From positions 1 through 14,909 of the IMG/VR virus record IMGVR_UViG_2778261203_000006: a stretch of 14,909 bases of DNA. One strand, given 5' to 3'. A program made the position numbers and the translations under genes. Each line of letters starts with the position of its first letter. Position 1 is the stretch's first letter. Source of the stretch: a virus (taxonomy: Duplodnaviria; Heunggongvirae; Uroviricota; Caudoviricetes). Positions 1-12,906 of this stretch are shown here, piece after piece. Below the pieces are notes generated by a model, which saw only the letters and a program-made list of their open reading frames with translations, was not told the DNA's origin and ran no database searches.

Positions 1-88
1 CGTCTGCGTTTCTCCGGTCCTAAGACATCAATCATCTGCTCTCCAATGACTAGTCTAAAAACTAGTATTAAGACTATCACTTATTTAA

Positions 89-517
89 GTGATATTGGTT
101 GTCTGGAGATTCATGGGGCCAGTCTACCTGTCATGGGCTGTTAATCATTACCGTGATAACGCCATCGCCTACAAAGAGCAGCGCGATAAAGCCACGTACA
201 TCATCGCTGACATGCAGAAGCGTCAACGTGATGTAGCAGAACTCGACGCCAGATACACAAAGGAGCTTGCTGATGCTAACGCGACTATCGAAAGTATTCG
301 TGCTGATGTTTCTGCTGGTCGTAAGTGGCTGCGCGTCAAAGCAGTCTGTCCGGACATGCATAAAACCACCGCCGCCTCCGGCGTGGATGATGGCGCCAGC
401 CCCAGACTTACTGACACCGCTCAACGGGATTATTTCGTTCTCAGAGAGCGCATCGAAACCATAACTAACCAATTGAATGGCCTGCAAGAGTATGTGAGAT
501 CACAGTGTTCATATTAG
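89..517 (+). CDS. Rz-like inner-membrane spanin (i-spanin), N-terminus replaced or truncated; possibly non-functional
   Basis: Product from [13 protein letters not shown] onward matches, from memory, phage lambda Rz (periplasmic coiled-coil part, C-terminal ...QCSY-like end). GTG start directly after an in-frame TAA at 86-88. The first ~12 residues ([12 protein letters not shown]) are not a convincing transmembrane helix, unlike lambda Rz. Confidence 0.75.
273..464 (+). CDS. Rz1-like outer-membrane lipoprotein spanin (o-spanin), embedded in the +1 frame of Rz
   Basis: ATG at 273 with AGGAG at 261-265. Hydrophobic signal ending in lipobox-like LVVSGC, then a proline-rich stretch ([15 protein letters not shown]) and TPLNGIIS, as in lambda Rz1. 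Fully nested in the Rz gene in another frame, the classic embedded-spanin arrangement. Confidence 0.75.
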
Positions 518-555
518 AAAAGTCTTATCATAAGATTTTTGTATATGGATGCATT

Positions 556-930
556 ATGTCTCAATACGCGCGCGCCGCTTTAATTGCTTATTATTTGGTT
601 GCTGATAATTCAATATCCCCGCGTGATGCATGGGATGCTGCTGTCGCTGAGGTTACAGAAAGCGAATCGGCAAGAAAGAAGGGATGCCCAAGGGCAACGT
701 TTCTCGCTCTGGCGGATAGCGGTTATCTGAAGAATGTAAAACCACATCATGGGGAGAAAAAGATCGGTAAGTTGTACCAAAGGGCAATTGAAGTTGCGAA
801 TCTGATTCTTGATTTACCCGGAATTAGCAAAGCTGAGCTAGTTGATAAAACTTGCTATAAAGACAGGCAAGGGTCTTATGACATTGCTCTAACTCTCGCT
901 CAGCACGGATTACTCCAGCGTCCTCAATAA
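556..930 (+). CDS. Hypothetical protein (about 124 aa from ATG 556; a GTG at 505 would give 141 aa), family not recognised
   Basis: Open frame with phage-like codon usage directly downstream of Rz, followed by an intrinsic terminator. No motif I can name. Start codon choice uncertain. Confidence 0.5.
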   Translation: MSQYARAALIAYYLVADNSISPRDAWDAAVAEVTESESARKKGCPRATFLALADSGYLKNVKPHHGEKKIGKLYQRAIEVANLILDLPGISKAELVDKTCYKDRQGSYDIALTLAQHGLLQRPQ

Positions 931-947
931 GATATTAAGTGATTTAT

Positions 948-972
948 GGCCTCGCTTTTAGCGGGGCCTTTT
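948..972 (+). terminator. Rho-independent terminator
   Basis: GGCCTCGC-TTTTA-GCGGGGCC hairpin (7 of 8 pairs, one G-T wobble) followed by TTTT, 18 nt after the stop of the 556-930 gene. Confidence 0.6.
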
Positions 973-1374
973 CACATCTGAATTTCAACGCGCATCTCAG
1001 CGCACAATAACCACCTGACCATTTGGAATGAGTCGTTGAAGATACCTGCAGAGTAGACAGAAAAACCAGCAGAATAAACAACAGAGTAACGAATTAGCTA
1101 GCAGGAATGATTGGCCATCAACTACAGCAGTTCCGATTTGATGGCCACAAAAAAGTTAGTTCAGATCGGCAACGTAGTTGGTAGCTTCGAGATTAGTGAT
1201 ACTAAATTCTGACGCCAAAATACGAGCAAGCTCTTCTTTCGAGCTTGCTGTGCGGTTTTGATTAGACCAGGCGATCAAGTAAAAACCATTGCTCTTCGCA
1301 AGCATGATTTGTATTGCATTGATAGTTATGTAGTAACTGTCCAAGAATAAATTACCTCAGTGTTAGGAAAAGTA

Positions 1375-1926
1375 ATGGCACTCACCGACAAGCAAGAAAT
1401 GTTCTGTCGCGAGTACCTCATCGATTTAAACGCCACGCAAGCGGCTATTCGGGCGGGGTACAGCGCAAAGACAGCTAACCGTACCGCATCCGAAAACTTG
1501 TCAAAACCTGACATCAAGTTAAGAATCGCCGAACTGAAAGCGCAACGCAATGATCTTGTTGGTATTAATGCAGAATATGTACTTAATCGCCTTCTTGAAA
1601 TCGACCAGATGGATGTGCTCGACATTCTCCTGCAAAACGGTGAGCTAAAACCCATTAAAGACTGGCCTAAGGTATGGCGCACAACGCTATCAGGAATGGA
1701 TGTCGTGGAGATGGTATCCGCAGATAGCGCCGCACTTCTGAAGAAAATCAAATGGCCTGATAAGGTTAAAAACCTTGAGTTACTTGGGCGCCATGTTTCT
1801 GTTCAGGCGTTTAAAGACAACGTCAAAAATGAAGTGACTGGCGCTGATGGAGGACCAGTCAGAACAGAAATTACCAACTTAACGCCGGAGCAGGCTGCAG
1901 AGGCGTATAGAAAAATGATGGGCTAA
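1375..1926 (+). CDS. Terminase small subunit
   Basis: Product begins [30 protein letters not shown], the N-terminal pattern I associate with phage terminase small subunits. AGGAAA ribosome-binding site at 1365-1370. Stop lies 2 nt before the terminase large subunit start. The track ORF starts at GTG 1360; ATG 1375 preferred. Confidence 0.8.
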
Positions 1927-1928
1927 GT

Positions 1929-3551
1929 ATGCCGTTACCATTCCCCTTCGATTTTAAACATCCTGATTACCAGATGGTTTTTGAATGGCGGATGGAACGC
2001 CTACAGCGCATTCGCCAGAATCCTGAAATATTGCCTGCACTAAAACAGTTTTACCGAACCAATCCGGCTCAGTTCATCATCGACTGGGGCATGACAACGG
2101 ACCCGCGTAATATTGATTATGGCCTGCCGGTGACCATTCCGTTTTTACTCTTCCCTAAGCAGGAGGAGTGGATCCACTGGATTATGGAACGCTGGAGCAA
2201 TCGGGAGAATGGTATTACCGAAAAATCCCGTGAAATGGGGCTCAGTTGGACCGCGATCGGACTGGCATGCTCGCTTTGTCTCTTCAACAAAGAAATGGTT
2301 ATCGGTTTTGGCTCCCGTAAAGAGGAATACGTCGACAGCACTGGTGACCCGAAAGCATTGTTCTGGAAGGCGCGCAAGTTCGTGGAAACGCTACCTGTAG
2401 AGTTTCGCGGTTCGTGGAGTGAGAAGAAGCACGCGCCATATATGCGTGTTGAGTTTCCTGAAACTGGTGCCGTTATCAAAGGCGAGGCTGGCGATAATAT
2501 TGGTCGTGGTGACCGTACCACGCTTTATCTGGTTGATGAGGCTGCATTCCTTCAGCGTCCTCTGCTGATTGATGCGGCGTTGTCACAAACGACGCGTTGC
2601 CGTATCGACCTGAGTTCAGTTAACGGCATGGCTAACCCGTTCGCTCAGAAGCGTCATGGCGGGAAGATACCGGTATTCACATTCCACTGGCGGGATGATC
2701 CTCGCAAGGATGAAGAGTGGTATCGCAGGGAATGCGAGAAAATCGATAATCCGGTGGTGGTGGCACAGGAACTTGATCTGAACTACAGCGCATCAGCGGA
2801 AGGCGTTCTGATTCCATCCGAATGGGTACAGGCTGCCGTTGATGCGCATATCAAACTGGGTATCCAGCCAACAGGCAAACGACTTGGCGCGATGGATGTC
2901 GCCGACGAAGGCAGGGACAAAAATGCCTTTTCCACCCGTCATGGCTTCCTCCTGGAAAATGTGCGGGAATGGTCCGGTGTGGGCAGCGACATTTATCAGT
3001 CCGTCGAGAAGGTTTTCGGCTTTTGCGAACAGGACAACCTCGAAGAGTTTCGCTTTGACGAGGACGGGCTGGGCGCTGGCGTTCGCGGCGATGCACGCGC
3101 TATCAACGAACTGCGTAACGCTGCGCGTCGACCGTCAATACTTGCCACACCGTTTCGAGGTAGTGGCGCGGTATTTGATCCGGATGATGAAGCTGTTCGC
3201 GGGGACAACGGGCAAGCCGCACGTCTGAACAAGGACTTCTTCGCTAACGCCAAAGCCCAGAGCTGGTGGCGGTTACGTAAACTTTTTCAGAATACCTGGC
3301 GCGCCGTGGTTGAAGGTATGGCTTACAACCCGGACGAAATCATCTCAATCAGCAGTAGCATGGCACTCAAAGATAAACTCATCATCGAGCTTTCGCAGCC
3401 GACCTATTCCATTAATGGTGTGGGAAAAATCGTTATTGATAAACAGCCTGATGGAACCCGATCGCCAAACCTTGCCGACTCGGTGATGATCAACTATGCC
3501 CCAATGAATTCAGCCCTGAACATCTGGGAGCTGCTAGGGAGACAGGCCTGA
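1929..3551 (+). CDS. Terminase large subunit (ATPase/nuclease)
   Basis: 540 aa directly after the small subunit. Deviant Walker-A-like [11 protein letters not shown] and Walker-B-like [10 protein letters not shown]. Stop overlaps the next gene start (ATGA). Confidence 0.85.
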
Positions 3552-4312
3552 TGGCACGAAACAAACAAGCCCTGCGGCGAACTGCGCAGGCCACAGCTGA
3601 TGGTTATGAGAATTTTATTGCCCGCGTAGGGATACAGACGCCTAACCAGCACTCAGCATCGACCTACCGGGCTAACTTCACCAGCCGCAACCGCATGCTG
3701 GTGGAATGGTCCTATCGTTCGTCCTGGATCATCGGCGAAGCGGTCGACGCTATCCCGGACGATATGACCCGGAAAGGCATTCGCATCACTTCGGAGATTG
3801 ACGCCAAAGACCGTGGCACCCTGGAAGCGCAGCTGGATGAGTTGCAGATCTGGGATGCGCTGAACGACGTGCTGAAATGGTCGCGCCTCTACGGCGGCGC
3901 GGTCGGCTTCATCATGATCGAGGGGCAGGCACCAATGACCCCGCTGCGGCTCGAAACCATTGGAGAAGGCAAGTTTAAGGGCATTCTCCCGCTCGACCGC
4001 TGGATGATTAACCCGGTCCTGACCCGCCGCATTAAAGAGATGGGGCCGGATCTCGGCAAACCTGAGTTTTACGACGTGGTGACCACTGCCACGGGCATTC
4101 CAGCCTGGCGCATCCATCACAGTCGCCTGATTCGCTTCGACGGGGTGACGCTGCCATTCCAGCAGAAGATGACCGAAAACGAATGGGGAATGTCGGTTGT
4201 AGAGCGTATCTGGGATCGGCTTACTGCGTTCGACAGCGCCACTGTCGGCGCGGCGCAGCTGGTCTACAAAGCGCATTTGCGTACCTACAGCGTGGAGAAG
4301 CTACCCATGTAG
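3551..4312 (+). pseudogene. Portal protein, N-terminal fragment (253 aa; intact portals are much longer)
   Basis: Sits immediately after the terminase large subunit with start/stop overlap, the usual portal position. Length is about half of a normal portal. Similarity to portal families is from memory, not a search. Downstream head genes are missing. Confidence 0.55.
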
Positions 4313-4324
4313 TGAGGGATAAAG

Positions 4325-5448
4325 ATGCCGACTCTTGATGTAACAGATGTGCTTTTTGACCCCGATTTTTGCAACTTCAATTTGTGGGTAACACGCCGAG
4401 TGCAAACGGTTGATGAGGACGGGACGGGAACGGTCAGGGAATTGAGCTAAGTGATTTCAAAGTCACCTTTACGATCGACTGGTTCAACATCAGCAGCGCG
4501 TCCCGGGTAGGGACTATCAAAATTTATAACCTCTCGGCAGATACTGTGAACCGAATCACCGGGCAGGAATTTTCGAAAGTGCGTCTGATTGCCGGTTACG
4601 ACGGTGTCGCGCCAGAGGTGTCAGCAAGCGACGTAGGGACCGTGCGGGAAGTTGACGCGGCGGACGTGGGCCAGAGAGATGGCCGCAACTACGGACTGAT
4701 TTTCAGCGGTGAAATTCGCTACTCGGTCACAGGAAAAGACAGTCCGGTTGATACCTACGTCCTGATTCAGGCAGCAGATACTGATCTGGCTTTTGCCACC
4801 AGTATAACCTCACAGACGCTGGCTGCCGGTTACACGGTCGCTGATGTGAACCGTGCGCTGATGAAAGACTTCGAAGCCAAAGGCGCGACCGAAGGCCTGA
4901 CGCCTGAAATGCCTGCTACCGTATTCCCTCGAGGGCGGGTGCTGTTCGGCATGACACGGCATCTTATGGATAACGTGGCCGGACAATGTGGCGCAACATG
5001 GCAATTCGTGGACGGTCAACGCCAGATGGTGGCGAATAACGAATATGTTCATGAAGCGATTGTGCTCAACAGCGCTACCGGGCTTATTGGCATGCCGCAG
5101 CAGACTATCGGTAACGGCGTAAACGTCCGCGCGCTTATTAATCCGAACATCCGGGTTAACGGGCTCATTCAACTGGATCAGGCTTCAGTGTATCGTACCG
5201 CGTTGTCGAACAACGATATCGCGATGGCCGGTGGGCAGATCACCGACCAGAACACGGACGGAAATATTACGCTAAGCGGCACCACATCGCAGCCTGCCAG
5301 CATCGCAACGGATGGCGTTTATATTGTGCGTGGGATTATGTACACTGGCGACACAAGGGGGCAGGCGTGGTACATGGATATGATGTGTGAAGCACGTGGC
5401 GCGGCTGATCTACTTTCGTCCTCAGCGCAGCAAAGGATTTATTCATGA
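4325..5448 (+). pseudogene. Phage structural (tail/baseplate-region) gene, frameshifted or 5'-disrupted; family not recognised
   Basis: ATG 4325 with GAGGG ribosome-binding site opens a 41-codon frame that stops at 4448-4450. The long frame ending at 5448 is open from 4417 (after TGATGA at 4411-4416) but has no ATG until the GTG at 4546. The two frames overlap at 4417-4447, implying a -1 frameshift within one gene. Confidence 0.45.
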
Positions 5449-5792
5449 AGCGTATGAAGTTAGTTTTGACAATTTCGTTATTATTTTCTTGTTCAGCAGC
5501 TTTTGCTGATTTGCAATGCGGCGGATATCTACTTCATGCAGCTGATAACGGTTGGACAAAAATCAACGGTGAGCAGGTAACATCACAGAAGATTACGTTT
5601 CTTGGTAAGAAAGATGACTGGGACAACGTTAAAACTAACATGGGCCTGATGCCTTCTCGCGATGGCAACAATTACGGCTTTGAGTTTGTGAAGCGTAACG
5701 GAAAAGCTTTCCTGAACGTCCAGCTTCTGCAGAACAGCATGGATGCGCCTAAAATCATCGGATCATTCCCTTGTAAAAAGGCGTTACGCTAA
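5445..5792 (+). CDS. Small secreted protein (115 aa) with N-terminal signal peptide; candidate prophage cargo (moron)
   Basis: MKRMKLVLTISLLFSCSAAFA|DLQ: positively charged N-terminus, hydrophobic core, AxA cleavage motif (a weak lipobox LFSC is also possible). ATG overlaps the stop of the upstream gene (ATGA). Appears AT-richer by eye than flanking genes. Confidence 0.6.
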   Translation: MKRMKLVLTISLLFSCSAAFADLQCGGYLLHAADNGWTKINGEQVTSQKITFLGKKDDWDNVKTNMGLMPSRDGNNYGFEFVKRNGKAFLNVQLLQNSMDAPKIIGSFPCKKALR

Positions 5793-5829
5793 AGTTTGAT
5801 GTCAATCTTCCGAGATGAGCGCTTTAAGG

Positions 5830-5858
5830 TTGACGAGATATTGTTCAAAGTTCACAAT
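5830..5858 (+). promoter_or_regulatory. Candidate sigma70 promoter for the two-gene cassette
   Basis: TTGACG (5830-5835), 17-nt spacer, CACAAT (5853-5858), about 30 nt upstream of ATG 5888. The -10 element matches consensus at only 4 of 6 positions. Confidence 0.3.
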
Positions 5859-5887
5859 CACAATCCCTTTAGTAAGAGAAATAATCC

Positions 5888-6661
5888 ATGGCGGCAGGCA
5901 TCCCATTAGAAAAAGCGCAAAAATATATTGAACAATTCAATGCGCTTCTATTGGATAGGGAAAGTTTAGATCCCTTCACTGAAAAGAAAATTCGAGAGGA
6001 ACTTTCTGTCTCTCCAACGCCTGCTACCAACATTGCACTATCTTATCTGGATGCAATAACCGGAAAGATTGAAAGCGCGTTACGTTATCTCAGGATAAGC
6101 CTAGAAGTAAACGATGTAACGTTGGCAATGCACTATCATCACATTTTAATTAATACATTTAGCTATAATGAACTCAAGGATGTCTATGTCCCGCTGGCAA
6201 AGAAGTATCGGACAAAACTCTTTAGTCACAACGCATACAGTTGGGCGTACCGTTGCGGCGAGCGTGAACAGTTAAAATTTTATATGGAAGAGCACATTAA
6301 GCTTCTTTCTGAATCAGAAGGCAGGAGTAATGCTATGAAGCACAAAGAAGAACTCCTTGCAGAAATGGATAATTTCTATAGCGCCACACAGTGCTCGAAG
6401 GAACAGTTCCAGACCTTAGCATCCATAATCTGGGGCTTGCTAAGTGAATACAAGGCTACGACAGGTTTCGTTCAGCTTAGTGGAAGCGGTTGCTATGTTG
6501 TTGATATTAAAAATCTTGAGCCTAAAACTATTGCCAAAATGAACTTCGACTTGGCTGATAGAGTCTGCGCTGAATCTAAACTGGATGATTGTTCCCTGTT
6601 AGCTAGATTTACCTCTCCGCGTCAGTTGCATACGGGGGTGAGCTACCATGTCGGTAACTAG
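5888..6661 (+). CDS. Hypothetical 257-aa protein, upstream partner of a HEPN-like protein; unrecognised family
   Basis: ATG with AAGAGA ribosome-binding site 8 nt upstream. Appears AT-rich. Last codons overlap the start of the next gene. No catalytic or nucleotide-binding motif recognised by eye. Confidence 0.6.
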   Translation: MAAGIPLEKAQKYIEQFNALLLDRESLDPFTEKKIREELSVSPTPATNIALSYLDAITGKIESALRYLRISLEVNDVTLAMHYHHILINTFSYNELKDVYVPLAKKYRTKLFSHNAYSWAYRCGEREQLKFYMEEHIKLLSESEGRSNAMKHKEELLAEMDNFYSATQCSKEQFQTLASIIWGLLSEYKATTGFVQLSGSGCYVVDIKNLEPKTIAKMNFDLADRVCAESKLDDCSLLARFTSPRQLHTGVSYHVGN

Positions 6662-7043
6662 CAATCAGATTCTCGATACCGCTCGATTATGTCTGTCTGA
6701 AAATATTGAGAGTGGATTTCGAAGCGCTATCTCAAGGGCGTATTACAGTATGTTACATGAGTCTATTAGCTCACTTACTGCCATACCGCATTTTACCCAT
6801 GAGCATCACAAAAATACTGTGGGTTATATGTCAACGCCCTCAGAGTGCAAATCAGAGCCATACCCGACAAATACACTGAAATCCCTAGCTTTCGTACTTC
6901 GCCAGTGGCGGGATGCTAGAAATGAAGCTGACTATGATCTGACGAATGTGACTGTTTCGAAAGAGATGGGACAGGATGCAATCGAGGCTGCTGAACTCTA
7001 TTTTGAGCGCTGGGAACAGCTAAAGTCTGCTAGAGTTTCATGA
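6648..7043 (+). CDS. HEPN-like small protein (131 aa), candidate RNase toxin or effector
   Basis: Residues 29-37 SRAYYSMLH (codons 6732-6758) form an R-x6-H arrangement on a predicted helix, resembling the HEPN Rx4-6H motif. ATG lies inside the last codons of the upstream gene (ATGTCGGTAACTAG). A strong terminator follows. Confidence 0.55.
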   Translation: MSVTSNQILDTARLCLSENIESGFRSAISRAYYSMLHESISSLTAIPHFTHEHHKNTVGYMSTPSECKSEPYPTNTLKSLAFVLRQWRDARNEADYDLTNVTVSKEMGQDAIEAAELYFERWEQLKSARVS

Positions 7044-7060
7044 ATAAAATTAACGTTATC

Positions 7061-7084
7061 AAACCCGCTTCGGCGGGTTTTTTG
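7061..7084 (+). terminator. Rho-independent terminator closing the two-gene cassette
   Basis: AAACCCGC-TTCG-GCGGGTTT perfect 8-bp stem followed by a T-run, 18 nt after the stop at 7043. Confidence 0.75.
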
Positions 7085-7102
7085 CTTTCTGGAGCCTACT
7101 AA

Positions 7103-7855
7103 ATGGCAGTATCTGACCAGACCCGCAGCGGCGACCTTGCCGAAACATTCAAATCTGAACGGGAAACAACAAAGAACCAGATCCGTGTCGCCTTGCCTGG
7201 CATTATTCAGTCATTCGATCCTGATGCGGTGACGGCAGTTGTGCAGCCTGCTATCCGTTCGGTTGAAAAGGATAATGACGGCAACCGCATTACCAAAAAT
7301 TACCCATTGCTGGTGGATGTGCCAGTGGTATTCCCGCGCGGCGGAGGATGTACGCTAACGTTCCCAGTTAAAGCCGGTGATGAATGTTTGGTGATTTTTG
7401 CCGATCGTTGTATTGATTTCTGGTGGCAGAGTGGCGGGATACAGGAGTCGGTCGATGACAGAATGCATGATTTATCGGATGCGTTTTGTATTGTCGGTCC
7501 CCAGTCGCAGGCAAGGAAGATTAGCGGTATTAATACCAGTGCCACACAGTTGCGTAGTGATGACGGCAGCACCTATTTTGAGCTTAATCCTGATACCAGG
7601 AAAATTAAAATTGTCGCTCCAGGTGGTCTTGATGTGGTTGCCCCTCTGGCTGATTTTTCTGAGAAAGTAACCATTCATGGCCTGTTAACCTGGATGGGGG
7701 GCATGGTGGGGTCTGTGGTTTCTGGTGTGGCTTCAAAAATCACTGGTGCTGTTGAGTTTTTGGGGAGCGTGAAGGCTAATGGCAAGCCAATCGATGATAC
7801 ACACACTCATGGTGGTGTTCAGCGTGGTGGAAGCAGTACCGACGGGGTAAACTGA
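7103..7855 (+). CDS. Baseplate central spike/hub protein (gpV / Mu gp45-like)
   Basis: GGAG ribosome-binding site. 250 aa with a glycine-rich C-terminus (THTHGGVQRGGSSTDG) typical of spike proteins. First gene of a run of translationally coupled baseplate genes. Confidence 0.6.
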   Translation: MAVSDQTRSGDLAETFKSERETTKNQIRVALPGIIQSFDPDAVTAVVQPAIRSVEKDNDGNRITKNYPLLVDVPVVFPRGGGCTLTFPVKAGDECLVIFADRCIDFWWQSGGIQESVDDRMHDLSDAFCIVGPQSQARKISGINTSATQLRSDDGSTYFELNPDTRKIKIVAPGGLDVVAPLADFSEKVTIHGLLTWMGGMVGSVVSGVASKITGAVEFLGSVKANGKPIDDTHTHGGVQRGGSSTDGVN

Positions 7856-8208
7856 TGCGATACAGACGTGAAGACGCCGATGGCGATTACACCTTTGGCA
7901 GCGGTGATGACACCTGGCTGATTAACTCGCCTGAGGCCGTAGCGCAGGCTGTGAAAACGCGATTCGAATTGTGGTATGGGCAATGGTTTCTTGATACCAC
8001 AGAGGGAACACCGTGGATCCAGTCCGTGCTGGGCAGGCAAAAACCAGAAACTTACAACCTGGCGATCCGTAAGCGCATCCTCGAAACGCAGGGCGTTAAA
8101 TCAATCCTCTCTTTCAATACGACGGTGGATACCACGACCCGACGTGTCATGTTTTCCGCTGAAATCGACACTCTCTATGGAATAACGACTGTTACATCGG
8201 AGGCGTAA
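7855..8208 (+). CDS. Small baseplate protein (gpW / gp25 / Mu gp46-like position)
   Basis: 117 aa. TGATG overlap with the upstream gene and TAATG overlap with the downstream baseplate J gene. Assigned by position and size; family not confirmed. Confidence 0.5.
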   Translation: MRYRREDADGDYTFGSGDDTWLINSPEAVAQAVKTRFELWYGQWFLDTTEGTPWIQSVLGRQKPETYNLAIRKRILETQGVKSILSFNTTVDTTTRRVMFSAEIDTLYGITTVTSEA

Positions 8209-9407
8209 TGGCTCTGAACCTTGATTCTCTCGGTTTATCTGCAAAGGTAACCGCGGAGGGGATCAGTGCGCCTGATTATCAGACGATACTCAGCACCCTG
8301 ATTAGCTATTTTCAGCAGATTTATGGTAGTGATGCCTACCTCGAACCGGACAGTAAAGACGGTCAGATGGTGGCTCTGATGGCGCTGGCGATTCATGATG
8401 CCAATAATATGGCGATAACTGTCTACAACTGTTTTTCACCAGCAACCGGCTATGGGGCCGCACTGACCAGTAACGTGAAAATAAATGGTATTTCACGTAA
8501 AGGCGCGACGAATTCTACGGTTGATTTGCTTCTTACAGGAACTGCCGGAACAACCATCATTAATGGCAGCGTGAAAGACAGTAATAATGTGATATGGCGT
8601 TTGCCTGCTTCAGTGGTGGTCGGCGTGGATGGTACAGTGATGGTGACCGCAACATGTTCCGTCAGTGGTGCAGTGGCGGCGCTGGCTGGAACTATCACTG
8701 AAATTAATACGCCAACCCGTGGCTGGGTTTCGGTAACCAATCCTGCTGCAGCTACTGTGGGCACTCCGGCAGAAACTGACGCGGAGTTACGTATCCGCCA
8801 GTCGCAAAGTGTTGCATTGCCATCAATAACCCCATTTGAAGCACTGGATGGTGCTGTTTCTAATGTTACCGGTGTAACCCGCCACAAACTCTATGAAAAC
8901 GATACTGGTTCGGAGGACGGTAACGGGTTACCACCACACTCTGTTGCTGTAATTGTGGATGGCGGTGATGTGACGGATATTGCTCAGGCTATCAGAGGGA
9001 ATAAAGGTCAGGGGACAGCCACTCACGGTACAACATCCGTTACGGTTCCGGATAAATACGGCAATCCCCATGTAATCAAATTCTCGCGTTCCAGTGATGT
9101 ACCTGTTTATGCCCGGATTAAATTAAAAGTTTTTACGGGTTATACCTCACAGATAGGGCAGCAGATCCAGCAGGCTATTTCCGACTATATCAATAGTCTG
9201 ACGATTGGTGATTCAGTCCTTTTAAGTCGCATTTACTCACCGGCCAATCTTGGCGTGGTGAGTGGCGGGAATGCACGCTATTACGATATTCAGGAACTGA
9301 CGATTGGGAAATCCCCGGGGGCTTTGTCGTCATCAAACATTGATATCAGATACAACGAATCTGCGTCCTGTACCCCGGAAAATATCGTTATAACGGTGGA
9401 GTCATGA
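8208..9407 (+). CDS. Baseplate J-like protein
   Basis: 399 aa containing ETDAELRIRQ, which resembles the ESDxxLR motif of baseplate J proteins. Translationally coupled on both sides. Confidence 0.75.
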   Translation: MALNLDSLGLSAKVTAEGISAPDYQTILSTLISYFQQIYGSDAYLEPDSKDGQMVALMALAIHDANNMAITVYNCFSPATGYGAALTSNVKINGISRKGATNSTVDLLLTGTAGTTIINGSVKDSNNVIWRLPASVVVGVDGTVMVTATCSVSGAVAALAGTITEINTPTRGWVSVTNPAAATVGTPAETDAELRIRQSQSVALPSITPFEALDGAVSNVTGVTRHKLYENDTGSEDGNGLPPHSVAVIVDGGDVTDIAQAIRGNKGQGTATHGTTSVTVPDKYGNPHVIKFSRSSDVPVYARIKLKVFTGYTSQIGQQIQQAISDYINSLTIGDSVLLSRIYSPANLGVVSGGNARYYDIQELTIGKSPGALSSSNIDIRYNESASCTPENIVITVES

Positions 9408-10084
9408 GCAAATACACCGAACTAATCACGAACTACCACGCCACCAAACCTAAATTTCTTGCGCATGTTGATCTGATGACCCGGCCGCTTATTGATGTTG
9501 CGGCTGCCACCAGAGGGCTGATTACTGCATTTGATATTGACTCTGCGGTTGGTGTGCAACTTGACATTCTGGGATTGTGGATCGGACGTAGCCGTGTTGT
9601 CAGCCAGCCTATCTCAGGTGTCTATTTCAGCTGGGATACCGACGGGCTTGGATATGATCAGGGGGTATGGCAGGGGCCATATGATCCTGATTCTGGATAC
9701 ATGTATCTCAGCGATGAAACTTATCGTGTCATTCTTAAAGCGAAGATTGCGATTAATAACTGGGACGGACGGAATGATTCGCTTCCGGCAATTCTTGACG
9801 CGGCAACAGCAGGATCCGGGCTGCGAATGCAGATTGTCGATAACCAGGACATGACGATATCGGTCTGGGTCTTTCCTGATACTGATATTTCAGATGTATC
9901 GCGTGAGTTAATTGCTGCAATTAAACAGGGATATCTCACAGTAAAAGCCGCCGGGGTTTGGGCGGGTGGCATTGAAACACCTTCGGTGGAAACTCCATCG
10001 GAAGGTTCAAAATTTTTTGGTTTTGATATGGATAACGAATTCATCAGTGGTTTTGATGTAGGGGCATGGGGAGTATTACTCTGA
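9404..10084 (+). CDS. Tail/baseplate protein (P2 gpI / Mu gp48 / YmfQ-like position)
   Basis: 226 aa immediately between baseplate J and the tail-fibre gene. Start overlaps the upstream stop (ATGA); stop overlaps the tail-fibre start (TGATG). Confidence 0.6.
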   Translation: MSKYTELITNYHATKPKFLAHVDLMTRPLIDVAAATRGLITAFDIDSAVGVQLDILGLWIGRSRVVSQPISGVYFSWDTDGLGYDQGVWQGPYDPDSGYMYLSDETYRVILKAKIAINNWDGRNDSLPAILDAATAGSGLRMQIVDNQDMTISVWVFPDTDISDVSRELIAAIKQGYLTVKAAGVWAGGIETPSVETPSEGSKFFGFDMDNEFISGFDVGAWGVLL

Positions 10085-10731
10085 TGGCGAAAAATGACTT
10101 TAAAGCGTTTGCAACTGATCGGAATGCCAATGTTATGTCGCAGGAGGAATGGGAAGCGTTGCCTGCGCTTTTATCCGGATTTACAGCAGGGAAAGCATCC
10201 AGTGCGCAAGTCAATAAGGTTATTCGGCAGGCCAGCTTTATTGCTGCAGCTCTGGCCCAGTTTGTAAGTGACAAAACGCAACGGGATGTGCTTGATAATG
10301 GTGATCTGCCCGGTTTTGTTGAATTGCTGGGATCGGGGTTTGCTGTTGAATACCTGAGCCGCAAGAATCCGTTTGGTGATATCAAATCGGATGGCACGGT
10401 GAAAACAGCTCTCGAAAACCTTGGTTTAAGAGCAAGCGGGCAGTACACCGATAATTTGTTATTTACAGGTCCTGATGGTCTTAAGATTCAGGTGTTTCGC
10501 CGGACGCTCGCAAATTTGACTACTGTCGGTGTAGTAAATTCTGTGCCAGTGACTTTCCCTGTCCCGTTCCCTGTTAATTGCTGGGGCGTTTTTTCTACCA
10601 AATTAACATGGGTTCAGATAACTAACTCATGCGAGTGGGTAAGCAATACAGGATTTACCGCTCAGGTCATGATGAATATTGCTGTAAATACAAACACCTC
10701 AGACGCTATGTTTTTAGCTATAGGATATTAA
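10084..10731 (+). CDS. Tail fibre protein: constant N-terminal part (to about 10422) plus the currently expressed variable C-terminal part
   Basis: ATG 10084 with GGGGAG ribosome-binding site (track ORF starts at 10066). N-terminus MAKNDFKAFATDRNANVMSQEEWEALPALL...ASFIAAALAQFV is a tail-fibre-like N-terminus. A crossover site lies inside the gene at 10409-10434. Confidence 0.75.
   Translation: MAKNDFKAFATDRNANVMSQEEWEALPALLSGFTAGKASSAQVNKVIRQASFIAAALAQFVSDKTQRDVLDNGDLPGFVELLGSGFAVEYLSRKNPFGDIKSDGTVKTALENLGLRASGQYTDNLLFTGPDGLKIQVFRRTLANLTTVGVVNSVPVTFPVPFPVNCWGVFSTKLTWVQITNSCEWVSNTGFTAQVMMNIAVNTNTSDAMFLAIGY
10409..10434 (+). other. Crossover site (left) of the Pin-type invertible segment
   Basis: CTCTCGAAAACC-TT-GGTTTAAGAGCA: imperfect 12-2-12 palindrome with the AAACC-NN-GGTTT core typical of Hin/Gin/Cin/Pin sites. 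Lies inside the tail-fibre reading frame. Confidence 0.6.
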
Positions 10732-10732
10732 T

Positions 10733-11173
10733 ATGAATCGTTTTGTGTTCAGTCCATCTGAGTCCCGTTTTTATGCCATCGAGTGGCAGGTTGATTATGT
10801 TGATAATAATTGTTGGCCACATGATGCCATTAACGTTAGTGACAGCATTTATTATGAGTTTTCCGGCACTCCCCCTACAGGTAAGCAACTTATAACTTTA
10901 AATAACATGCCAGCATGGGGTGATATTCCTCCACCTACACGAGAAGAATTAATTGTCGTTGCTGATGTGGAGAAGCAAAAAAGAATAGATTTAGCCAATG
11001 ATTACATGAACGGTAAGCAATGGCCTGGTAAAGCAGCTATTGGTCGTCTGAAAGGTGAGGAACTGGCACAATATAATTTGTGGCTGGATTATCTGGACGC
11101 ACTGGAGCTGGTCGATACCGCCAGTGCGCCAGATATTGAATGGCCTACGCCTCCGGCAGTTCAGGCCAGATGA
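10733..11173 (+). CDS. Tail fibre assembly protein (chaperone for the currently expressed fibre)
   Basis: 146 aa directly after the fibre gene. C-terminus ...ASAPDIEWPTPPAVQAR resembles the conserved tail-fibre-assembly C-terminal motif. Confidence 0.75.
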   Translation: MNRFVFSPSESRFYAIEWQVDYVDNNCWPHDAINVSDSIYYEFSGTPPTGKQLITLNNMPAWGDIPPPTREELIVVADVEKQKRIDLANDYMNGKQWPGKAAIGRLKGEELAQYNLWLDYLDALELVDTASAPDIEWPTPPAVQAR

Positions 11174-11750
11174 CATCCGGCGCGGTGCTGGTATCTGTTG
11201 CCGTCACCGCGTCAATGTAATCCAGCACAGCGTTAAGGCTGGTTGTTTCTGCCTGCGTCAGTTTACGTCCGGCCTGCAATTTCAGCTGAATCAGACTGAT
11301 TGAAGCCATTGCAGTATCAATCAGTGACTGGCGCTGTGCTTCTGCTGCATCTACTGCGGCGCTATGCTGTGCTTCGGTATCCGTCACCCATTTCTCACCA
11401 TCCCATTTATCGTATGGCGTTAACGGGGCGATAGTGGTTGTATTATCAGGGTAATCACCCGGAGCTGTGATTTCTTTTGATTCTCCTGTTTCGGTGCTAA
11501 AGACGATTTCACCGCGATGGTCTGGCACATATTCCCATGAGTTAAAATCTACAGATCGGCAGATTGCATAACCAGCTTTGTATGTGCCAGGGGCATCTAA
11601 ACAGGAATATGCAGGGATACCGACACCAACGGCAAGATATTCAGTTGATGTGGAAATATATTCCCGTGTCTCACTGTCATAGTTATAAACGGTAATCTCT
11701 CCTGCCTTTGTGGCAATAAATTTATTATTTAAGATGGCGTTATACATCAT
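11145..11750 (-). CDS. Tail fibre assembly protein (chaperone for the alternative, inverted fibre)
   Basis: 201 aa on the - strand, convergent with and overlapping the 3' end of the + strand assembly gene by 29 bp. C-terminus ...TSTAPDVIWPELPEA has the same motif. Start overlaps the stop of the upstream - strand fibre segment. Confidence 0.75.
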   Translation of the reverse strand: MMYNAILNNKFIATKAGEITVYNYDSETREYISTSTEYLAVGVGIPAYSCLDAPGTYKAGYAICRSVDFNSWEYVPDHRGEIVFSTETGESKEITAPGDYPDNTTTIAPLTPYDKWDGEKWVTDTEAQHSAAVDAAEAQRQSLIDTAMASISLIQLKLQAGRKLTQAETTSLNAVLDYIDAVTATDTSTAPDVIWPELPEA

Positions 11751-12283
11751 GCAGCCCTCACAATGTAATTAAATGAAATATTACGTGGGCGTGTCTCTGC
11801 TGCACCGACAATACTGGTACTCAACCCCGTTGCCGTTCGTTTGTTATTTTTATTTCCTTCAATCAGACAGTTGTAATCATCATTACCAATTAACGAATTG
11901 GTGGCATCAATACTGTCCGGGGACAAGGCATTAGTTGTGGAACTTAAAGTCAGCATCTCGTCTGAACTTGGAAGATTTTTTAATGGTGTTTCATTGCGTG
12001 AAATACCCGCGTAAAAAAAGGACTCATGTCTGTGAGCTTCAAAAGAGTCATCCTGAAGACTTAACAAGGCTCGCCCCGCATCCACCCCGCGCCCATCATC
12101 CCATCCACGAATAAATTCACCGCGTAAATCAGGCAATTTATTTGTCGGGTAAGCCTTTGCCAGTTCCGGGTATTCTTCAGCAGAAAAAGCTGCTCCGTTG
12201 CATTTTAGCCAGCCTGTTGGCGGAGTGGCTGAGGGCCACGGAACAGGGACACCAACAGGTAATGCAGAGCCTTCTCCCAAACC
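11747..12283 (-). CDS. Alternative tail-fibre variable C-terminal segment (no own start; expressed only after inversion)
   Basis: - strand frame encoding ...GEGSALPVGVPVPWPSATPP...NISFNYIVRAA, which resembles the C-terminal receptor-binding region of lambda-like side tail fibres (PWPS motif, NYIVR ending). The frame continues in register through the right crossover site. Confidence 0.65.
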   Translation of the reverse strand, partial: GLGEGSALPVGVPVPWPSATPPTGWLKCNGAAFSAEEYPELAKAYPTNKLPDLRGEFIRGWDDGRGVDAGRALLSLQDDSFEAHRHESFFYAGISRNETPLKNLPSSDEMLTLSSTTNALSPDSIDATNSLIGNDDYNCLIEGNKNNKRTATGLSTSIVGAAETRPRNISFNYIVRAA

Positions 12284-12297
12284 AACATTTATGAAAA
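12272..12297 (+). other. Crossover site (right) of the Pin-type invertible segment
   Basis: TTCTCCCAAACC-AA-CATTTATGAAAA. The inner arm matches the left site at 9 of 12 positions when inverted; the central dinucleotide is AA on the + strand, i.e. TT on the - strand, the same as the left site in inverted orientation. Confidence 0.55.
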
Positions 12298-12351
12298 TGC
12301 AGAAATAACGAGCAAATGGCATCATTCCTGCTTTTGTCAGGGAGATCTACC

Positions 12352-12906
12352 ATGCTTATTGGCTATGTACGTGTGTCAACAAATGACCAGAACACAGATC
12401 TACAACGTAATGCGCTGAACTGTGCAGGATGCGAGCTGATTTTTGAAGACAAGATAAGCGGTACAAAGTCCGAAAGGCCGGGACTGAAAAAACTGCTCAG
12501 GACATTATCGGCAGGTGACACTCTGGTTGTCTGGAAACTGGATCGGCTGGGGCGCAGTATGCGGCATCTTGTCGTGCTGGTGGAGGAGTTGCGCGAACGA
12601 GGCATCAACTTTCGTAGTCTGACGGATTCAATTGATACCAGCACACCAATGGGACGCTTTTTCTTTCATGTGATGGGTGCCCTGGCTGAAATGGAGCGTG
12701 AACTGATTGTTGAACGAACAAAAGCTGGACTGGAAGCTGCTCGCGCACAGGGACGAATTGGTGGACGTCGCCCCAAACTTACACCAGAACAATGGGAGCA
12801 GGCCGGACGATTAATTGCAGCAGGAATTCCTCGCCAGAAGGTAGCGATCATCTATGATATTGGTGTATCGACTTTGTATAAGAGGTTTCCAGCCAGGATT
12901 ATATAA
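12352..12906 (+). CDS. pin: Serine-recombinase DNA invertase (Hin/Gin/Cin/Pin family)
   Basis: Product MLIGYVRVSTNDQNTDLQ...: N-terminal resolvase/invertase catalytic domain with the active-site serine in YVRVSTNDQ, and a C-terminal helix-turn-helix. 184 aa from ATG 12352 (track ORF starts earlier at 12316). Confidence 0.9.
   Translation: MLIGYVRVSTNDQNTDLQRNALNCAGCELIFEDKISGTKSERPGLKKLLRTLSAGDTLVVWKLDRLGRSMRHLVVLVEELRERGINFRSLTDSIDTSTPMGRFFFHVMGALAEMERELIVERTKAGLEAARAQGRIGGRRPKLTPEQWEQAGRLIAAGIPRQKVAIIYDIGVSTLYKRFPARII

Follow-up and report, generated by a model that had tools for sequence, protein, structure and literature searches.

The window, the 14,909-nucleotide stretch of prophage DNA analysed here, carries a Pin/pix inversion module of the e14 type that sits on the fibre gene of another prophage, a lambdoid one of the myovirus type. 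With a probability of roughly 0.9, we consider it a working leftover and not a maintained host-range device. As the initial annotation had proposed, and as judged from the DNA, all structural elements of a Pin-type fibre switch are present and intact: two pix sites, in-frame alternative fibre ends, their chaperones, the invertase and a homologue of the enhancer. The system itself is a known one that has already been described; only the tail backbone differs.

The recombination sites are two 26-bp sequences in inverted orientation, at 10409-10434 (left, a pixL variant; CTCTCGAAAACC TT GGTTTAAGAGCA) and 12272-12297 (right, a pixR variant; TTCTCCCAAACC AA CATTTATGAAAA). Two sites with an identical central dinucleotide had been placed at these positions, the first of them inside the tail-fibre gene, and both points were borne out: the left core TT (10421-10422) falls within the fibre open reading frame, and the right core AA (12284-12285) is the same dinucleotide read on the other strand. 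In inverted orientation the two sites agree at 17 of 26 positions. Of the proposal that both are of the AAACC-NN-GGTTT type, only the part concerning the left site stood, as it alone has the full dyad; the right outer half reads CATTT where the published pixR has CGTTT. When the sites were aligned to known sites, the check that had been suggested, the left site matched the published pixL (23/26 identical, with three mismatches, in the inner half) and the right site the published pixR (25/26, the change from CGTTT to CATTT being the one mismatch), and both lie at positions homologous to those in K-12 e14. No match was expected by chance in either case, and none of 200 shuffled sequences gave a match to the published 26-mers with three or fewer mismatches.

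The inverted repeat by itself is not above chance, and the sites gain their significance only through the published 26-mers. In a generic inverted-repeat search the site pair ranked fourth among 218 pairs, which is chance level; by their repeat length alone the sites do not stand out. A 14-nt half-site pattern with two mismatches allowed gave three matches against 1.4 expected, a number equalled in 35 of 200 shuffles.

The constant N-terminal part of the fibre gene, defined from the list of open reading frames and its translation, extends over 10084-10420 (+), and residues 1-123 have matches among the tail fibre families of PHROG. The gene starts at an ATG at 10084 that overlaps the stop codon of the preceding wedge gene (DUF2612); an in-frame ATG is also found upstream, at 10066, and RefSeq relatives start the fibre gene at the position equivalent to 10084. 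The constant part ends in ~21 codons (10357-10420, +) that form a conserved junction, which moves with the invertible module: over 10357-10427 the window is 94% identical to K-12 e14 DNA, and in a BLASTP comparison of the fibre with K-12 StfP only SRKNPFGDIKSDGTVKTALENLGL is shared, with 23/24 residues identical. The end that is now expressed (Sv; 10423-10731, +) encodes a Gp53-like C-terminal domain (Pfam PF21882, E = 7e-7, residues 150-215). The silent alternative end (Sv'; 11747-12283, -) encodes a phage tail Collar domain, detected in the in-silico inverted fibre with E = 3e-15 (Pfam) and matching PHROG 523 and 3100.

The invertible segment between the two core dinucleotides is 1861 bp long (10423-12283, unstranded). 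Position 10421 is codon position 2 of the fibre gene, and the plus strand has the junction codons AAC CTT GGT TTA, the minus strand AAT GTT GGT TTG. The Leu/Val-Gly-Leu junction is thus shared by the two sites, with the core at codon positions 2-3 in each, so that the 113-residue N-terminus joins either tip in frame. The present fibre of 215 aa reads ...ALENLGLRASGQY... and has the Gp53-like tip. Cutting at the core and inverting the segment in silico yields a fibre that reads ...ALENLGLGEGSALPVGVPVPWPS..., has the Collar tip and stops after 291 aa (from ATG 10084) or 297 aa (from 10066), in agreement with the prediction that inversion keeps the reading frame.

Each fibre end is followed by its own assembly chaperone gene, and the two genes converge, as had been described for this locus. 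The chaperone of the expressed end lies at 10733-11173 (+; Pfam Caudo_TAP, E = 5e-26; PHROG 188) and that of the silent end, which is TfaE-like, at 11145-11750 (-; Caudo_TAP, E = 1e-32; PHROG 105), with an overlap of 29 bp between them. The latter has ~90% DNA identity to K-12 tfaE. The arrangement is therefore that of a tail-fibre switch, with a constant N-terminus in frame with either C-terminus and each C-terminus followed by its chaperone. A scan for promoters and terminators, which returned no more sites than in shuffles, gave no terminator between the convergent chaperone genes. Outside the segment, a short putative leader ORF of 14 codons, MMPFARYFCIFINV, is found at 12286-12325 (-). 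It is the counterpart of the start of stfE in K-12 and runs in frame via the right site into the fibre end that faces pin at the time.

The serine invertase gene had been placed just outside the right site, and pin indeed begins 54 bp beyond it (12352-12906, +). It encodes a serine DNA invertase of 184 aa with a Resolvase domain (residues 3-135) and a C-terminal HTH_7 helix-turn-helix (138-181), an architecture that corresponds to the ~185-195 aa recombinases of the Din family. Pin is 96% identical to K-12 PinE, 83% to Cin and 79% to Gin. Residues R7, S9, D64, R65 and R68, which we take to be the catalytic residues, are invariant in the alignment of these four proteins. In a search of solved structures Gin came out on top (3uj3 and 4m6f; best 3uj3, E = 4e-95). 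No NCBIfam equivalog model matched Pin at its cut-off, and the fibre and chaperone proteins had zero matches in that collection. Within the 5' part of pin, positions 12370-12441 (+) form a gapless alignment with cin nt +19 to +90, the stretch that the P1 record annotates as the recombinational enhancer; 70 of the 72 nucleotides are identical to K-12 pinE, 55 to P1 and 54 to Mu. We assume from this homology that a Fis-bound enhancer with putative Fis sites lies in cis in the 5' end of the gene. The sites also conform to the family, being two imperfectly palindromic 26-bp inverted sequences with identical 2-bp cores, and in natural variants from other isolates reciprocal exchange at the core was found.

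By analogy with the family, Pin dimers would bind the two 26-bp pix sites, Fis on the enhancer in the 5' end of pin would promote synapsis of the sites, and both sites would be cut at the central 2-bp core, rotated and religated, which would flip the 1861-bp segment. In one orientation the constant fibre is joined in frame to the Gp53-like tip, followed by its chaperone, and in the other to the Collar tip, followed by the TfaE-like chaperone.

The closest known system is the e14 element of K-12 (stfP-tfaP-tfaE-stfE-pinE). It has the same gene order, including the convergent chaperones with their 29-bp overlap, the same 24-aa junction before the crossover and the same pin-proximal leader ORF, and its TfaE-like chaperone and the N-terminal part of its Collar end have ~90-94% DNA identity to the window. 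Like the prophage of the window, e14 is defective. The two differ in that no DNA similarity to the K-12 counterparts is seen in the Gp53-like tip, in the distal Collar tip or in the N-terminal part of the chaperone of the Gp53-like tip, and in that the two inner half-sites, which are identical in K-12, differ from each other in the window (TGCTCTT... and TTCTCCC...). The segment of the window, at 1861 bp, compares with one of 1797 bp reported for K-12 (PMC12529663). The backbones differ as well: e14 has Mu-like YmfQ, whereas in the window the fibre gene follows a DUF2612 wedge gene and has another N-terminus, and the genes upstream comprise the DUF2612 wedge, Baseplate_J and another spike. Insertion is at icd in e14 and between sbcB and dacD here, with dacD found on the right flank and sbcB on the left, the latter as seen in a sibling contig. 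The locus is not e14 in the strict sense, as it has neither the Mu-like YmfQ/JayE baseplate setting nor the integration at icd, and K-12 e14 has no more in common with it than the module, from position 10357 on. The comparison with e14 that had been recommended thus recovered the same Pin/pix module on another tail backbone.

The layout is also that of the Mu G (Gin/gix) and P1 C (Cin/cix) segments, in which a constant part leads through the crossover site to convergent Sv-U and U'-Sv' pairs with the invertase gene adjacent. The invertases of Mu and P1 are 79-83% identical to Pin, the enhancer has a homologous position inside the invertase gene, at its 5' end, and the cix inner half TTCTCTTAAACC agrees with the left inner half-site of the window, TGCTCTTAAACC, at 11/12 positions. 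The gix core, however, is GA and that of the window AA, and Mu and P1, both viable phages, have far longer fibres and segments of 3-4 kb, whereas the fibres of the window are short (215 and 291 aa). Hin/hix, which mediates flagellar phase variation in Salmonella, shares the recombinase family and the 26-bp site architecture, and hixR resembles the right site of the window in having one half strongly off consensus. Hin inversion needs a Fis-bound enhancer (PMC3798978). Hin flips a promoter and switches expression, whereas in the window coding C-termini are exchanged.

The prophage that carries the module is a recent deletion derivative and cannot build virions by itself. Capsid and tail-shaft genes had been noted as missing, and comparison with full-length relatives confirmed this: the portal C-terminus and the capsid, sheath, tube, tape-measure and baseplate-plug genes that the relatives possess are absent from the window. 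Window positions 1375-4304, 4302-4424 and 4422-10439 map to 4001-6930, 12117-12239 and 18222-24238 of L004. The region 4302-4424 (+) is thus the scar of two deletions with a 123-bp remnant between them; together the deletions remove ~11.2 kb, which reach from the portal C-terminus across the baseplate plug and 41 nt into the hub gene. Contigs with exactly the truncated portal of the window are 99.9-100% identical to it. Four truncated-portal contigs carry different further deletions, located in spike, baseplate J, wedge or fibre genes, and four different deletion sets in such near-identical siblings indicate recent, ongoing decay. This pattern suggests decay rather than maintenance of the baseplate and fibre module, and the earlier view that the module is maintained finds no support in it. 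The earlier designation as a host-range switch holds for the ancestry of the module and fails for its present function, since the element cannot form particles alone; with the particle genes missing, the switch does not alter the host range of virions of its own. No viable sequenced phage with the DUF2612 backbone of the window was identified in the phage collection. The best Pin match there, vB_EcoM-689R6, was set aside as an e14-type prophage record with host flanks and another backbone.

A host could nevertheless keep such a module for its own use. StfE2 of e14 blocks T2 adsorption in K-12, according to one study with overproduced proteins (PMC12529663), and a flip in the window would put the Gp53-like, receptor-binding tip behind the leader ORF and might yield a small StfE2-like protein that blocks adsorption by unrelated phages. 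The leader MMPFARYFCIFINV was kept in all ten loci compared and is in frame through the right site in both orientations. Moreover, the sibling contig L010, in which the left site and the greater part of the baseplate are gone, keeps the leader, the Gp53-like tip and pin; it would be locked in an StfE2-like state, that is, locked ON if the module serves defence. L011 likewise retains the pin-proximal side. These two contigs are anecdotal, however, and the published effect comes from that single study of overproduced proteins. In addition, BLASTP revealed no similarity between the Gp53-like tip and the K-12 StfP tip, so receptor-blocking activity is not transferable from K-12. We consider such co-option by the host unlikely, and a working leftover remains our preferred reading.

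That the module works, at least in relatives, is indicated by natural variants. The crossover had been proposed to occur at the cores described above, and this agrees with the flipped natural copies, in which the breaks fall inside a 7-bp overlap, AAACCAA/TTGGTTT, that surrounds the core, and with the occurrence of the predicted junctions in sequenced E. coli. In L005 the block is inverted relative to the window, with breakpoints overlapping 10421-10427 and 12271-12285. Two sibling E. coli isolates, Z1323PEC0011 (L020) and Z1323PEC0013 (L021), are 100% identical except for a flipped block of 1829 bp, and they carry the two site variants of the window with the inner halves reciprocally swapped. 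The predicted inverted left junction (300 nt) was found in 62 complete E. coli genomes at ≥80% coverage, with up to 99.3% identity, and the inverted right junction in 11 genomes at ≥80% coverage, three of which match it at 300/300 nt. L010, which has exactly the truncated portal of the window and 100% identical flanks, contains the hybrid site TGCTCTTAAACC AA CATTTATGAAAA, the predicted product, and matches 60/60 nt of the predicted junction. These sequenced copies show that the same two site variants recombine in nature, also within this deleted prophage lineage; we infer that switching occurs in the window's own isolate too. In K-12, inversion of the e14 P segment by PinE has been seen in clonal cultures (PMC4272514) and measured by qPCR (PMC12529663). 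Two further signs of mixed orientation within a single sample, the end of the L012 contig exactly at 10427 and 15 collection blocks that have the chaperone only on contigs <2 kb, are suggestive and were discounted, as repeated prophage cassettes elsewhere could mimic them.

It is quite improbable, on this evidence, that the segment is a locked relic that no longer flips here and that the polymorphism elsewhere records past activity in intact phages. Pin might be silent, since no sigma-70-like promoter was picked up for the gene and the scan gave no more sites than shuffled sequence, or the variant sites, one and three bases off canonical pix, might be poor substrates; the as-is left junction on the window's backbone is also rare, occurring in just two complete genomes. 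Yet the same site variants recombined between L020 and L021, isolates with 100% identity elsewhere, the recombinant site is present in L010 of the same truncated-portal lineage, and both the ORF of pin and its enhancer-homologous stretch are undamaged and differ little from their counterparts in K-12, where PinE is active. Homologous recombination or cassette replacement between prophages, to which the mosaic nature of the module (the same chaperone cassette on Mu-like, P2-like and DUF2612 backbones, and fibre tips swapped between relatives) might point, is hardly credible as the source of the orientation differences, because all three blocks show 100% identity between L020 and L021, the breakpoints lie within the 7-bp core region, and the reciprocal half-site exchange is the exact product of a serine invertase, whereas homologous exchange at 7-bp repeats is implausible.

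Beyond its correct annotation, the locus itself matters little. It illustrates cleanly how the Pin/pix module, from ~64 bp ahead of the left site up to and including pin, moves as one unit onto different tail backbones, and the natural variants indicate that flipping of the switch continues after the genes for particle formation have been lost. The lineage forms a convenient natural series, with the reference form, a form locked in the orientation of the window, one locked in the flipped orientation and in-frame fusion derivatives, in which one may ask whether the fibre switches of defective prophages persist as neutral leftovers or serve the host, for instance by blocking adsorption. If the latter were true, the single published case of e14/PinQ would extend to another tip and another prophage.

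Two 26-bp sites in inverted orientation, with the same core, had been proposed in the initial annotation to bound an invertible segment, and both were found: the left site at 10409-10434 (CTCTCGAAAACC TT GGTTTAAGAGCA) and the right site at 12272-12297 (TTCTCCCAAACC AA CATTTATGAAAA). Compared in inverted orientation they agree at 17 of 26 positions and the core dinucleotide is identical. The AAACC-NN-GGTTT core ascribed to both is present in the left site, which forms a good dyad, but not in the right site, whose outer half (the half outside the segment) is degenerate (CATTT). Judged by its inverted repeat alone, the pair does not stand out, ranking 4th of 218 pairs in a generic inverted-repeat search, and a 14-nt half-site pattern showed no enrichment over shuffles. 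Its significance comes from the comparison with published Din-family sites, whose sequences are tabulated in PMC3241671 (Table 3): the right site equals pixR at 25 of 26 positions and the left site equals pixL at 23 of 26, and none of 200 window shuffles gave a match to the published sites at ≤3 mismatches. Canonical pixL and pixR are present at homologous positions in e14, the cryptic prophage of E. coli K-12.

The probable start of the fibre gene is the ATG at 10084, overlapping the stop of the DUF2612 wedge gene, and RefSeq relatives are annotated likewise. Position 10421 is codon position 2, and the core TT occupies positions 2-3 of a leucine codon, with GGT TTA coming next. The minus-strand reading of the right site is GTT GGT TTG, in frame with the ORF 11747-12325. 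The present fibre product is 215 aa long with a Gp53-like C-terminal domain, and core-to-core inversion in silico yields a continuous 291-aa protein carrying a Collar domain, so the reading frame is kept, as had been predicted. Each fibre end also has its own convergently arranged chaperone gene encoding a Caudo_TAP protein, at 10733-11173 (plus strand) behind the Gp53-like tip and at 11145-11750 (minus strand) behind the Collar tip. These genes overlap by 29 bp; tfaP and tfaE of e14 are likewise convergent and overlapping.

The serine invertase gene (pin, 12352-12906), which was expected just outside the right site, starts 54 bp beyond it and encodes 184 aa with Resolvase and HTH_7 domains. 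Its product shares 96% identity with K-12 PinE, 83% with Cin and 79% with Gin, the last being its best relative of solved structure; in close relatives the gene is already named pinE by PGAP. R7, S9, D64, R65 and R68, which we take to be the catalytic residues, are invariant in an alignment of the four proteins. A stretch at 12370-12441 aligns without gaps to the enhancer annotated inside cin in the P1 record and is identical to K-12 pinE at 70 of 72 positions. The steps linking the sites, frame and domains to the natural products found here are inferred from the invertase family (PMC3798978) and the published site table. Pin dimers would bind both sites and Fis the enhancer, an invertasome would assemble, both sites would be cut with a 2-bp stagger at the core, and one subunit pair would rotate by 180 degrees before the DNA is religated. 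Fis dependence, pin expression and the switching rate in the window strain are likewise matters that we infer.

Flipping was judged from natural variation among genomes. In L005 (E. coli QML220601), a full-length relative, window 10910-12285 aligns on the opposite strand, and neighbouring alignment blocks share window 10421-10427 and 12271-12285, where the cores are predicted. In L005 and a further relative, L001, the two chaperone proteins are the same but encoded on opposite strands, within an inverted block that is 99.9% identical. Four junctions built in silico were searched against 5,426 complete E. coli genomes. At a coverage of at least 80%, the predicted inverted left junction was found in 62 genomes (identity up to 99.3%) and the inverted right junction in 11, with 300 of 300 nt matching in three. 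The as-is junctions were found in 2 (left) and 937 (right), counts that do not form a ratio because the right junction is independent of the backbone. Z1323PEC0011 and Z1323PEC0013, sibling isolates from dogs, show 100.000% identity across blocks of 2329, 1829 and 2329 bp, with 7-bp overlaps between blocks and an inversion of the middle one. Their two site variants are exactly those of the window. One sibling has the sites TGCTCTTAAACC AA GGTTTTCGAGAG and TTCTCCCAAACC AA CATTTATGAAAA, and in the other the inner, segment-facing halves are exchanged; therefore the window's site variants are able to recombine.

The absence of capsid and tail-shaft genes, noted initially, was confirmed against the full-length relatives L004 and L005, in which a lambdoid early and lysis region is accompanied by a full complement of head, sheath, tube, tape-measure and baseplate genes. 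On L004 the window corresponds to 4001-6930, 12117-12239 and 18222-24238; a 5.2-kb and a 6.0-kb deletion lie on either side of a 123-bp head-tail connector remnant (window 4302-4424). The lost region starts at the portal C-terminus, runs as far as the baseplate plug and takes in the hub gene's first 41 nt. The portal ORF (3551-4312) stops just past the first deletion junction. The truncated portal protein is an exact marker of the deleted lineage and is found on 14 contigs, including the window itself (L009; GCA_002468085.1, NMNN01000025.1). One contig of this lineage, L010, has window 10421-10939 reverse-complemented and joined to window 12279 onward, and its flanks match the window at 100% identity. 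The site in L010 reads TGCTCTTAAACC AA CATTTATGAAAA, as expected of the hybrid, and equals the in-silico junction at 60 of 60 nt; the flip in the deleted lineage therefore came after the loss of the head and tail genes. The left site of L010 was removed by a deletion later than the flip.

Among the short-read contigs of this lineage, L012 ends at window 10427, the last base common to both orientation junctions, and L014 ends at 10450, 30 nt beyond the core. Neither e14 nor any other relative retrieved contains the 31-mer whose last base is 10427. In 15 collection blocks the chaperone gene is confined to contigs shorter than 2 kb. These contig ends and short contigs fit mixed orientations within cultures, with repeated cassettes as another possible explanation. 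In L030 (GCA_900481895.1, UDGI01000003.1), locus 1985-6069 has four pix-type sites and duplicated Gp48/J fragments flanking the cassette; this arrangement resembles the outcome of a compound rearrangement involving two elements with pix sites, perhaps through Pin-mediated inversion across prophages.

The truncated-portal contigs are 99.9-100% identical to the window, and four have differing extra deletions: window 8550-10329 in L008, 7442-7974 and 8966 onward in L010, 9843-10875 in L011, and 2310-2667 and 9591-10220 in L014. Differing deletions in near-identical contigs are the signature of a young, rapidly eroding prophage. The initial annotation had supposed that the baseplate and fibre module is maintained; with four sibling contigs carrying different extra deletions, nothing points to maintenance. 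The deletions upstream of the switch in L008, L011 and L014 are three independent events, all in-frame fusions (J-fibre, wedge-chaperone and wedge-fibre); 7442-7974 and 2310-2667 are out of frame. Three in-frame fusions of three, a pattern noticed post hoc with a chance of about 1/27, could hint at selection for continued translation into the fibre region.

A DacD-type carboxypeptidase gene forms the right flank of the prophage, and a sibling contig has sbcB and yeeD/E/F-type genes left of the integrase. Because of these flank genes and what we take to be the K-12 gene order, we place the prophage between sbcB and dacD. In window 1-1375, the left end, lie an Rz-like lysis gene and a DUF6979 gene; this end differs from the lysis region of L004 and L005 (only 122-282 aligns, at 75%), relatives otherwise 98% identical to the window, and marks another mosaic joint just before the small terminase gene. 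Two overlapping ORFs between the hub-associated genes and the spike, 5888-6661 (257 aa) and 6648-7043 (131 aa), gave no Pfam match and only PHROG matches of unknown function. L006, another relative, has a different gene pair there, one annotated as a YafO-family toxin, and 5888-7043 may be a variable cargo slot.

The comparison with e14 suggested in the initial annotation bore out the kinship, through the homologous pix sites, PinE and DNA similarity that begins at 10357. Between K-12 StfP and the window fibre, similarity is confined to the 24 residues that directly precede the crossover (23 of 24 identical), and the K-12 tip is unrelated in sequence to the window's Gp53-like tip. Mu-like (e14-type), P2-like and DUF2612 backbones are each followed by the identical chaperone cassette, which occurs in both orientations. 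The inner half-site TGCTCTTAAACC always accompanies the Gp53-like tip and occurs joined to both kinds of outer half, as predicted by reciprocal exchange at the core. The window system is the known Pin/pix module, with one tip cassette exchanged and a backbone other than that of e14.

In clonal K-12 cultures the P segment of e14 has been seen to invert (PMC4272514). Its inversion is reported to create StfE2, in which the Gp53-like end of StfP follows the stfE leader, and StfE2 is reported to block T2 adsorption when produced (PMC12529663, 2025). The window has an equivalent minus-strand leader ORF from 12325 down to 12286 (MMPFARYFCIFINV), whose 14 codons are in frame and conserved in the window and its relatives (all ten loci compared). 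AGGA lies just upstream of the leader ATGs, 27 bp separate the leader from the divergent pin start, and any leader promoter would fall inside the pin 5' end, overlapping the enhancer-homologous stretch. The window has the orientation of the K-12 reference, with the Gp53-like tip on the structural fibre and the Collar tip on the leader; L010 is locked in the leader-plus-Gp53-like state. The conserved leader and this locked state would fit a co-opted role, an unlikely possibility; the Gp53-like tip here is, as noted, not related in sequence to the K-12 one.

The sites, frame, domains and natural flipped products support the reading of this region as a Pin-type invertible fibre switch. To the known module they add in-silico evidence of a recombination-proficient switch that flipped after the capsid genes had gone, as well as evidence of decay in the surrounding prophage.
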